In this document: positions 3,213 to 3,486 of the stretch, in pieces
Position numbering within the stretch: the stretch's first letter is position 1
Layout: every line of letters begins with the position of its first letter
Origin: Escherichia phage vB_EcoS_SCS31
DNA: 46,054 bases
Direction: 5' to 3' (one strand)
Sequence record: ON081052
Program-made: the position numbers and the translations under genes
Notes under the pieces: generated by a model
Databases searched by the model: none
Seen by the model: the letters and a program-made list of their open reading frames with translations, nothing else
What the model was told of the DNA's origin: nothing

Positions 3213-3486
3213 ATTGGATTGTTAAAAAAGAGCTTGCATCACTGAGTGGAAGTATATAATATTAATCACGTAGACAGGCGAGGCCACTAAGTGGCAACGG
3301 CGCACGGAGCGCAACTACTAAGTCCGTTGCTCATTAAGTAGCGTATGCGGCACACTTCCCAGTATGGGCTTTATCCCATTAGGGACTTGTAAGACCTAGA
3401 GCAAATAGGCAATCAAATCGGTCGTAACAGGCGACGCTGGATCCGTAACCAGCAATCTTCATCTAGCAAGTCTAGCTAAAGATTAT

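Follow-up and report, generated by a model that had tools for sequence, protein, structure and literature searches.

The region at positions 3213-3486 of the genome of Escherichia phage vB_EcoS_SCS31 (ON081052), a T1-like coliphage (family Drexlerviridae), is flanked by an rtp15-like gene (2970-3212) and a transfer RNA (tRNA) gene for Arg(UCU) (3487-3561), and raises the question of what a hairpin-rich, apparently non-coding stretch does at this site. The whole stretch of DNA analyzed (46,054 nucleotides (nt)) is referred to below as the window. An initial annotation, made from the letters alone, had proposed a structured RNA co-transcribed with the tRNA. This general idea held as far as sequence analysis reaches, on account of a promoter, the lack of a terminator ahead of the tRNA and covarying stems, but several details failed: one of the hairpins was spurious, two were located in a dispensable insertion, and the element was not about the tRNA. 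The comparison described below suggested that positions 3234-3486 represent the Braunvirinae version of a promoter-proximal structured leader RNA found throughout the family, apparently an undescribed structured non-coding RNA. Its most probable role (probability of approximately 0.5) may be that of a cis-acting regulatory leader RNA, binding a protein or RNA polymerase.

A sigma70-type promoter was predicted upstream of the element, followed by a 218-nt RNA that would begin at approximately 3269 and adjoin tRNA-Arg; no terminator was found between this promoter and the tRNA in this lineage. Among Braunvirinae-type phages, the promoter had the form TTGCAT-N17-TAAYAT with an A-tract before it, and the family-wide form was TTGACN-N17-TAnnnT with CTGAYYGG in the spacer. 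The -35 hexamer was TTGACN in all other genera, and, in these as in the Braunvirinae-type phages, its distance to the CGT at the predicted transcript start was always 35 nt. The promoter was overlooked in a simple scan, since the -35 hexamer of this lineage (TTGCAT) matches TTGACA at only three of six positions. A perfect TATAAT was also present at 3255-3260. This geometry of promoter and start was conserved in 86 distinct sequences from at least six lineages. The spacer motif supplied the TG of an extended -10 element in most genera; its conservation across all genera went beyond what this TG requires, and the motif may be recognized by a regulator at the DNA level.

When the query stretch 3264-3486 (223 nt) was compared with phage sequences, 94 records matched, all from Drexlerviridae, and the region was unannotated in every annotated record among the matches listed. 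Twenty distinct versions were aligned. Common to these were the promoter, a 5' core with high conservation, and a conserved 3' part; at three sites, whole hairpin modules were either present or absent. The identity of the 5' core was 90-95% between phages with flanking genes that were 73-96% identical. Six hairpins were maintained by compensatory changes across the 20 relatives, including two of the five inverted repeats named in the initial annotation. In the helix set, 92.6% of alignment cells formed a standard pair versus 26-38% when the partners were slid by 1-3 columns, and 49 cells were changed on both sides versus 16.9 in shuffled alignments, none of which (0/500) reached 49. RNAalifold independently recovered H1, H2, H2b, H3, and H4 (Table 1). 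U.G pairs were frequent in H2b and H3; since these would be C.A on the other strand, the selected molecule is the + strand RNA.

The stem of H1 alternated between GCCAC/GUGGC, CCAUC/GAUGG, and CUAGC/GCUAG among relatives, and that of H4 between CUGG/CCAG and CCGG/CCGG. In the outer stem of H2b, all cells (100%) formed pairs; TR1 and ES showed double changes from G-C to A-U (CCGU/GCGG to CCAU/AUGG), and U.G was changed to C-G or U-A elsewhere. H5 was confined to phages with the same tRNA type, TR1 and ES having another hairpin sequence at this position, and nine of the 20 relatives had no insertion at 3358-3385, among them TR1 and ES, in which a longer stretch was gone. No conserved pairing partner of the 5' single strand (3269-3282) was found in the alignments. 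The loop of H2 (ACGGA, 3304-3308) was exactly complementary to UCCGU in the loop of H4 (3442-3446), giving five pairs in the window and four in most relatives; the central three pairs were invariant in the relatives, and hence provided no covariation signal either way. A kissing interaction of 5 bp between these loops is possible. A pseudoknot between CUACU and AGUAG (3316-3320 with 3339-3343) was rejected, as it was not kept in Rtp, 12397V, or TR1.

All five inverted repeats of the initial annotation were present in the sequence where it had placed them, and the comparison with relatives separated them. GCCAC/GTGGC (H1) and GCTGG/CCAGC (H4) were the two kept by compensatory changes. The hairpin at TCCCATTAGGGA belonged to the variable insertion and was formed in approximately 9 of the 20 relatives (CCC/GGG with varying loops), and that at CCCAGTATGGG in only a few. 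GCAACGG/CCGTTGC, the longest and most precisely placed of the five, was outside the conserved fold: it showed no double changes, one of its pairs was broken in 8 of the 20 relatives, and it overlapped H1, H2, and H2b, with the last of which it was incompatible. It was therefore rejected because of the lack of covariation and the conflict with helices that do covary. A repeat finder (6-nt seed) returned only the 13-nt arms at 3454-3466 and 3472-3484, which had not been listed before. The absence of an open reading frame (ORF) of 60 amino acids (aa) or more was borne out, and the + strand of 3213-3486 was even devoid of ORFs of at least 30 aa, with several stops in each of the three + frames; the G+C content was 45.3% versus 43.5% for the whole window. 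A small protein gene was rejected on these grounds and because insertions and deletions varied in length, as was a small ORF following GAGG (3280-3283), since possible start codons were in different frames in the window and SU57 and the frame was not conserved.

The same design was found upstream of the rtp17-like gene in every Drexlerviridae lineage examined: Braunvirinae, Nouzillyvirus (TH21, CJ19), Vilniusvirus (KLB19), Tlsvirus (Tls, F115), Tunavirus (SH6), Webervirus (Sushi), and dozens of IMG/VR genomes. Its 5' part consisted of the promoter, CGTRRACAnAAGAG exactly 35 nt after TTGAC, and two hairpins separated by AACG; the middle was variable, and in most lineages the 3' part comprised AAUCGG and two further hairpins, the last of which had a CCGUAA loop. 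AAUCGG preceded H3 in Braunvirinae, Nouzillyvirus, and Tlsvirus-type lineages, and was degenerate (UUCGG, CUCGG) in Vilniusvirus and Tunavirus. A covariance model of the 5' domain, built from 16 seeds across the family, gave exactly one match in each of 69 of the 77 loci, and likewise a single match in the window (3269-3315; 46.7 bits, E value of 6e-10), in line with one copy per genome. Family-wide, H1 was 97.9% paired, each of its four pairs occurring as three to four types and the stem in 14 different combinations, and H2 was replaced by at least 10 other Watson-Crick stems (e.g., GCAGC/GCUGC, GUGAG/CUCAC, GCCAG/CUGGC, and GUAGC/GCUAC); the covariation score was 0.588 versus 0.134 in shuffles. 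Seven different stems of H4 surrounded the same CCGUAA loop. The window thus had all of the features of the candidate family: the promoter at a fixed distance, CGURRACAnAAGAG, H1, AACG, and H2, upstream of an rtp17-like gene.

A pattern scan with the promoter and 5' strand only found 66 contigs in IMG/VR (9.7-53 kb, nearly all 23-53 kb). The same scan of 185,579 bacterial and archaeal species genomes found nothing real; its two matches were due to chance, being in coding-like sequence and without a model match. The matches from exact 16-17-mer scans with the G+C-rich core in IMG/VR and metagenomes (L005, L007, and all of L024-L172) were also rejected as chance, save for copies of GenBank phages.

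The constant neighbor of the leader was the gene for a 60-aa protein similar to rtp17 and T1 gp56, found in 789 phage records across Drexlerviridae (PHROG 2919). Among the 66 IMG/VR contigs, which had been found by the promoter and 5' motif alone, two ended before the gene could appear, and it was located 66-473 nt downstream on the same strand in all of the other 64 loci. A strong canonical terminator was found 480-900 nt after the start and before terS in 23 of the 24 loci scanned, covering all lineages; the sole locus without it was that of Sushi, the sequence of which ended approximately 520 nt after the start. In the window, the order 3' of the tRNA was the rtp17-like gene (3581-3763), the intrinsic terminator (3810-3834), terS (3877), and terL (4401), and this first strong terminator was 541 nt downstream of the predicted +1. 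The conserved unit accordingly consisted of the promoter, leader RNA, optional tRNA or small ORFs, rtp17-like gene, and terminator. The small protein was predicted to have a beta-beta-alpha-beta fold, with close homologues only being used in the prediction, and Pfam provided nothing informative on the neighboring small proteins.

The end of the leader differed between lineages. The element ran into a ribosome-binding site, with neither a terminator nor tRNA, in Tlsvirus-type phages, Tunavirus, and Nouzillyvirus. In two lineages (an IMG/VR group such as L237-L244 and L257-L261, and part of Webervirus), the last leader hairpin was G+C-rich and was followed by a T-run and then the first ribosome-binding site; judging from these features, it is an intrinsic terminator inside the leader.

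Table 1. Predicted features of the leader locus. Positions are those of the window, except for the loci in relatives in the last row.
Feature	Position	Strand	Remarks
A-tract ahead of -35	3222-3229	+	Shared by relatives
-35 hexamer TTGCAT (TTGACN elsewhere)	3234-3239	+	Kept in all 20 Braunvirinae-type relatives
Spacer motif CTGAGTGG (family consensus CTGAYYGG)	3242-3249	+	In every family member aligned
-10 hexamer TAATAT	3257-3262	+	17-nt spacer; TAAYAT in relatives, TAnnnT at the same distance in all genera
5' single strand CGUAGACAGGCGAG (family CGURRACAnAAGAG)	3269-3282	+	Contains 7 of the 10 columns that are invariant in the seed alignment of the family
Hairpin H1, GCCAC-UAA-GUGGC	3283-3295	+	Double changes at 4 of 5 pairs, 99% of cells pair (Braunvirinae set)
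Linker AACG	3296-3299	+	Invariant in 20 relatives, near-invariant family-wide
Hairpin H2, GCGC-ACGGA-GCGC	3300-3312	+	Stem invariant in Braunvirinae, replaced by other stems family-wide
Bulged hairpin H2b	3324-3350	+	CCGU/GCGG outer stem, UAU bulge, UGCU/AGCG inner stem, loop CAUUAAGU
Variable insertion, two small hairpins	3358-3385	+	CCCA-GUA-UGGG (3358-3368); UCCC-AUUA-GGGA (3374-3385)
Hairpin Hc, CCUA-GAGCAAA-UAGG	3395-3409	+	93% of cells pair, sequence barely varies; comparison neither supports nor refutes it
Single strand AAAUCGG	3415-3421	+	Conserved
Hairpin H3, GUCG-UAACAGG-CGAC	3421-3435	+	Two adjacent pairs U-A/C-G changed to C-G/U-A in 8 of 20; found by RNAalifold
Hairpin H4, GCUGG-AUCCGUAA-CCAGC	3436-3453	+	Conserved CCGUAA loop; 100% of cells pair, double changes at two pairs
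Hairpin H5, arms 3454-3466/3472-3484	3454-3484	+	13-nt arms, 85% complementary; 3' end 2 nt before tRNA
tRNA-Arg(UCU)	3487-3561	+	ARAGORN; Rfam RF00005, 45 bits
Gene for 60-aa rtp17/T1 gp56-like protein	3581-3763	+	Start 312 nt downstream of 3269
Intrinsic terminator	3810-3834	+	7-bp stem with 5 G-C pairs, then seven T; before terS
Strong terminator-like hairpins	3810, 6392, 9398, 10456, 10793, 13097, 14137, 18056, 19294, 20652, 24117	+	
Inverted repeat GCCAC-TAA-GTGGC	3283-3295		
Inverted repeat GCAACGG/CCGTTGC	3294-3300/3324-3330		
Inverted repeat CCCAGTATGGG	3358-3368		
Inverted repeat TCCCATTAGGGA	3374-3385		
Inverted repeat GCTGG/CCAGC	3436-3440/3449-3453		
tRNA landing-site loci in relatives	L221 694-781; L023 866-1051; L233; L014 and L020		

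Known families did not account for the element. With Rfam 15 (4227 models) at gathering thresholds, the only match in the window was the tRNA (3487-3558), and a search of 3100-3900 at E values of up to 10 found nothing on the + strand within 3269-3486; the sole overlapping match (JPX_2, - strand, E value of 2.4) was at the level of chance. The Rfam scan suggested in the initial annotation thus recognized the tRNA only, and the structured RNA belongs to no Rfam family. No description of the element was found in the literature searched on transcription and non-coding RNA of Drexlerviridae and T1.

The architecture, in which hairpins were strung on conserved single strands (the 5' 14-mer, AACG, AAUCGG, and the CCGUAA loop) while stems varied and modules came and went, is the usual pattern of RNAs presenting short motifs to a protein or RNA polymerase, rather than of compact metabolite-binding folds. 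Host RNA polymerase would start at approximately 3269 and transcribe the leader, tRNA-Arg, and small gene as one RNA. The conserved single strands between covarying stems may then form a binding platform for a protein or the elongating polymerase, and this platform would act in cis on its own transcript, affecting either elongation and termination or the fate of the downstream RNA. By analogy with the leaders of ribosomal-protein operons or with N and nut, the most plausible partner may be the co-encoded 60-aa protein. In the lineage of the window, the leader would have gained extra hairpins and a tRNA gene, the tRNA making use of the strong promoter, and the processing of the tRNA by RNase P would cut the leader free and set its 3' end. 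Direct masking of a ribosome-binding site is excluded as the general mechanism because tRNAs or one to two ORFs may be located between the leader and the constant gene. Control of elongation and termination, or of RNA fate, was favored because it fits all lineages, two of which have a terminator inside the leader.

Several points weigh against this cis-acting leader. Every functional step in the model is read from sequence comparisons. The folding energy of the single sequence was unexceptional, which did not bear out structure above chance by this measure: the minimum free energy z-scores were only -1.5 to -1.9, namely, -1.93 for the + strand of 3213-3486 (7 of 200 shuffles folded equally well), -1.63 for its - strand, and -1.49 for the predicted transcript 3269-3486. 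Only the promoter, 5' strand, and H1 were truly universal, Webervirus keeping these together with one terminator-like hairpin, and no terminator was present inside the leader in the Braunvirinae-type lineage of the window. The tRNA in the window, and one to two ORFs in other genera, separated the leader from the protein gene, which speaks against simple occlusion of its ribosome-binding site. The predicted structure of the protein matched a generic small fold, which is no proof of RNA binding. Moreover, an extended -10 promoter-like sequence (TGGTATAAT, 3845-3853) was located just 3' of the terminator and 24 nt before the start of terS, and SU57 was annotated with a predicted promoter at the same place; given this promoter, terS may be independent of read-through.

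The main rival to the cis-acting leader, possible but on balance unlikely, is a discrete and abundant trans-acting RNA (a riboregulator or protein sponge). Its 3' end would be generated by RNase P in the window, by the tRNA-Ser in Vilniusvirus, and by an intrinsic terminator in other genera, and its single strands (5' end, AAUCGG, and CCGUAA loops) would bind host mRNA or titrate a host or phage protein. A defined 3' end was in fact available in several lineages, with either a tRNA directly after the element or a G+C-rich stem and T-run, and CGUAA-type loop motifs recurred in extra modules in five phages and in the duplicated 3' domain of A110b. Some small RNAs pair with their targets through a seed at the 5' end, and the conserved 5'-terminal single strand resembles such a seed. 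However, the element was a 5' untranslated region rather than a separate gene in Tlsvirus-type phages, Tunavirus, and Nouzillyvirus, and its strict linkage to one downstream gene is typical of cis elements. No homologue of the element or obvious target was found in E. coli genomes, in which short seed matches could not be searched. A site that acts as DNA (a pac site, replication origin, or operator array) is very improbable. The position near terS would suit it, and CTGAYYGG and the first 14 transcribed bases could bind a protein on DNA; however, stems were kept by compensatory changes while their sequences changed, and the U.G pairs were strand-specific, neither of which is expected for double-stranded DNA sites. 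The chance that the element is only the 5' leader of a tRNA precursor, or a decayed tRNA, with no further role is close to negligible. It adjoins the tRNA, and H5 ends 2 nt before the 5' end of the latter. On the other hand, the element had no tRNA in most genera and was accompanied by different tRNAs (Arg-UCU, Arg-CCU, and Ser) in others, and its 5' core was conserved as much as the tRNA or more. TH21, CJ19, Tls, SH6, and Sushi carried it without a tRNA, directly before the protein gene, which contradicts this explanation as well as the earlier suggestion of a mere substrate for tRNA processing; the element is not tied to the tRNA because these relatives carry it alone. The idea of a tRNA-like remnant also failed: ARAGORN and the Rfam tRNA model detected only the real tRNA, with no second tRNA by ARAGORN in the window or by RF00005 at E values of up to 10, and no tRNA-like match in 3269-3486 at the same limit.

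A doubtful sub-case of the cis-acting leader is a signal for processive antitermination of late genes, similar to put of phage HK022 or lambda nut with N, in which the nascent 5' domain, alone or with the small protein, would modify RNA polymerase such that it reads through 3810-3834 and later terminators. The element was promoter-proximal, with two hairpins within the first 47 nt, and the strong terminator closing the unit was directly before terS in nearly all loci scanned, as described above. At least 11 strong terminator-like sites were present on the + strand between 3.8 and 24 kb, between packaging, head, and tail genes and many with a similar tail (TTTTTATTG); within 1-20 kb, 29 terminator-like sites were found versus 16 expected. 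Recognizable promoters were also few: the careful re-annotation of phage TLS reported 21 terminators but no more than three sigma70 promoters, found neither a polymerase nor a sigma factor encoded by the phage, and listed neither the leader promoter nor the leader RNA. Furthermore, put RNA acts over more than 10 kb and needs no transcript tether to the polymerase (PMC9378689), so the cut at the tRNA would not exclude the mechanism. Nevertheless, the covariance model of the 5' domain, applied with filters off, gave no match with an E value below 1 in the HK022 genome, and a nut site was rejected. The best boxA-like string (TGCTCATTAAGTA, 3328-3340) had three mismatches to rrn boxA, a level at which the window contained 34 matches versus 21 expected (53 versus 48 at one mismatch to YGCTCTTWA), and it was lineage-specific, being missing from other genera. 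The good extended -10 promoter at 3845-3853 follows the terminator, and, as quoted in PMC11447400, the late units of T1 have been proposed to have their own promoters. A more specific version appears to be a long shot: the leader and 60-aa protein may form a new RNA-protein switch. Binding of the protein to the nascent leader would render the host polymerase resistant to terminators, thereby turning on the packaging and morphogenesis genes. Such a switch would work in a similar manner to N with nut or to put, and be unrelated to either.

The cis-acting leader was compared with four known systems. The put RNA of HK022 is a two-stem-loop RNA of approximately 70 nt that causes factor-independent antitermination via the beta' zinc-binding domain of RNA polymerase. 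Similar to putL and putR (PMC9378689), the T1-family element is a nascent phage RNA with two stem-loops within tens of nt, 3' of a sigma70 promoter, and before terminators. It differs in having no similarity in sequence or structure profile, and in having a 14-nt 5' single strand and further 3' hairpins; in addition, put needs no phage protein, whereas the T1-family element is linked to a conserved protein gene and antitermination is only proposed. In lambda, nut sites function with N, and the PR'-qut-6S RNA-tR' unit with Q, and boxB loops vary with N specificity. The T1-family unit shares with these the order of a promoter, conserved single strand and hairpin, small protein gene, and terminator, directly ahead of late or packaging genes, and its leader hairpin loops also differ between genera, as boxB loops do between N specificities. 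However, it has no boxA above the level of chance, and its small protein is a folded domain (predicted) and not an arginine-rich disordered peptide; to our knowledge, it has no Q-like or N-like homology. Ribosomal-protein operons have autoregulatory leaders, but in the T1 family a tRNA or ORFs may separate the leader from the gene, and no Rfam ribosomal-protein leader was matched. The stable RNAs C and D of T4, which are encoded in a tRNA gene cluster, are likewise small structured phage RNAs; they share a transcript with tRNA and are freed by the enzymes of tRNA processing (both being proposals for the T1 family). The T1-family RNA, in contrast, also occurs away from tRNA genes, which most genera lack at this site, and comes with a conserved promoter of its own and a constant protein-coding neighbor.

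T1 is a classical coliphage, and Drexlerviridae are common in therapy collections and fermentation outbreaks, while very little has been learned about how their genes are regulated. A family-wide covarying RNA at the junction of the small leftward genes and packaging genes offers a concrete handle on this control, and would be a new RNA family for Rfam and annotation pipelines. If the switch described above were true, it would bear on the timing of late transcription in these phages, of which TLS, at least, has no gene for an RNA polymerase or sigma factor. The site of tRNA insertion is also of use in studying the acquisition and expression of tRNAs by virulent phages.

Some minor observations concern the modules of the RNA. 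A110b had a tandem duplication of the 3' domain, H3 plus H4 (L016, 880-982). Five relatives (L011, L012, L014, L016, and L017) had an extra hairpin, GAGG-AUAAGGCGUAAA-CCUC, the loop of which contained a CGUAA motif similar to that of the H4 loop and the 5' end. The window contained four copies of CCGTAACC versus 0.44 expected; the other three were rejected as related elements, since they were not in hairpins and at least two were inside annotated genes.

The spot 3' of the leader was a recurrent landing site for tRNAs (Table 1). Most genera had no tRNA there; Arg(UCU) was found in Braunvirinae, Arg(CCU) in TR1 and ES, and Ser in Vilniusvirus KLB19, at the place occupied by tRNA-Arg in the window. 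UALMA_PCEc3 and CEB_EC3a had the Arg tRNA together with a second annotated 'tRNA-Ile' of 102 nt at the same site.

Bases 1-3543 of the window, including the whole leader element, were identical to Escherichia phage vB_EcoS_ACG-M12 (Guelphvirus, Braunvirinae). The two sequences were of equal length in GenBank (46054 bp) and differed by 3058 substitutions, with no insertions or deletions; the differences formed blocks within 3544-39649 with identical stretches between them, the first (3544) being inside the T-loop of the tRNA. The T-stem of tRNA-Arg was chimeric because the junction between the ACG-M12 type and the other type falls in this T-loop (3536-3555): the 5' arm GGTGG was of the ACG-M12 type (partner CCACC) and the 3' arm CCAGT of the SU57/Msk type (partner ACTGG), giving one G.G mismatch and one G.U pair in a tRNA that still scored 45 bits. 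The window has the appearance of a consensus of a related phage assembled with a reference as guide; alternatively, it may be an unusual mosaic. Two records labelled as Campylobacter and Pseudomonas phages, MG065688 (A110b) and PP134917 (PsgS01F), respectively, were Drexlerviridae close to coliphages, and PsgS01F had the same length (44679 bp) and equal match statistics as Escherichia phage UALMA_PCEc3; the host labels of these two records may be due to contamination.

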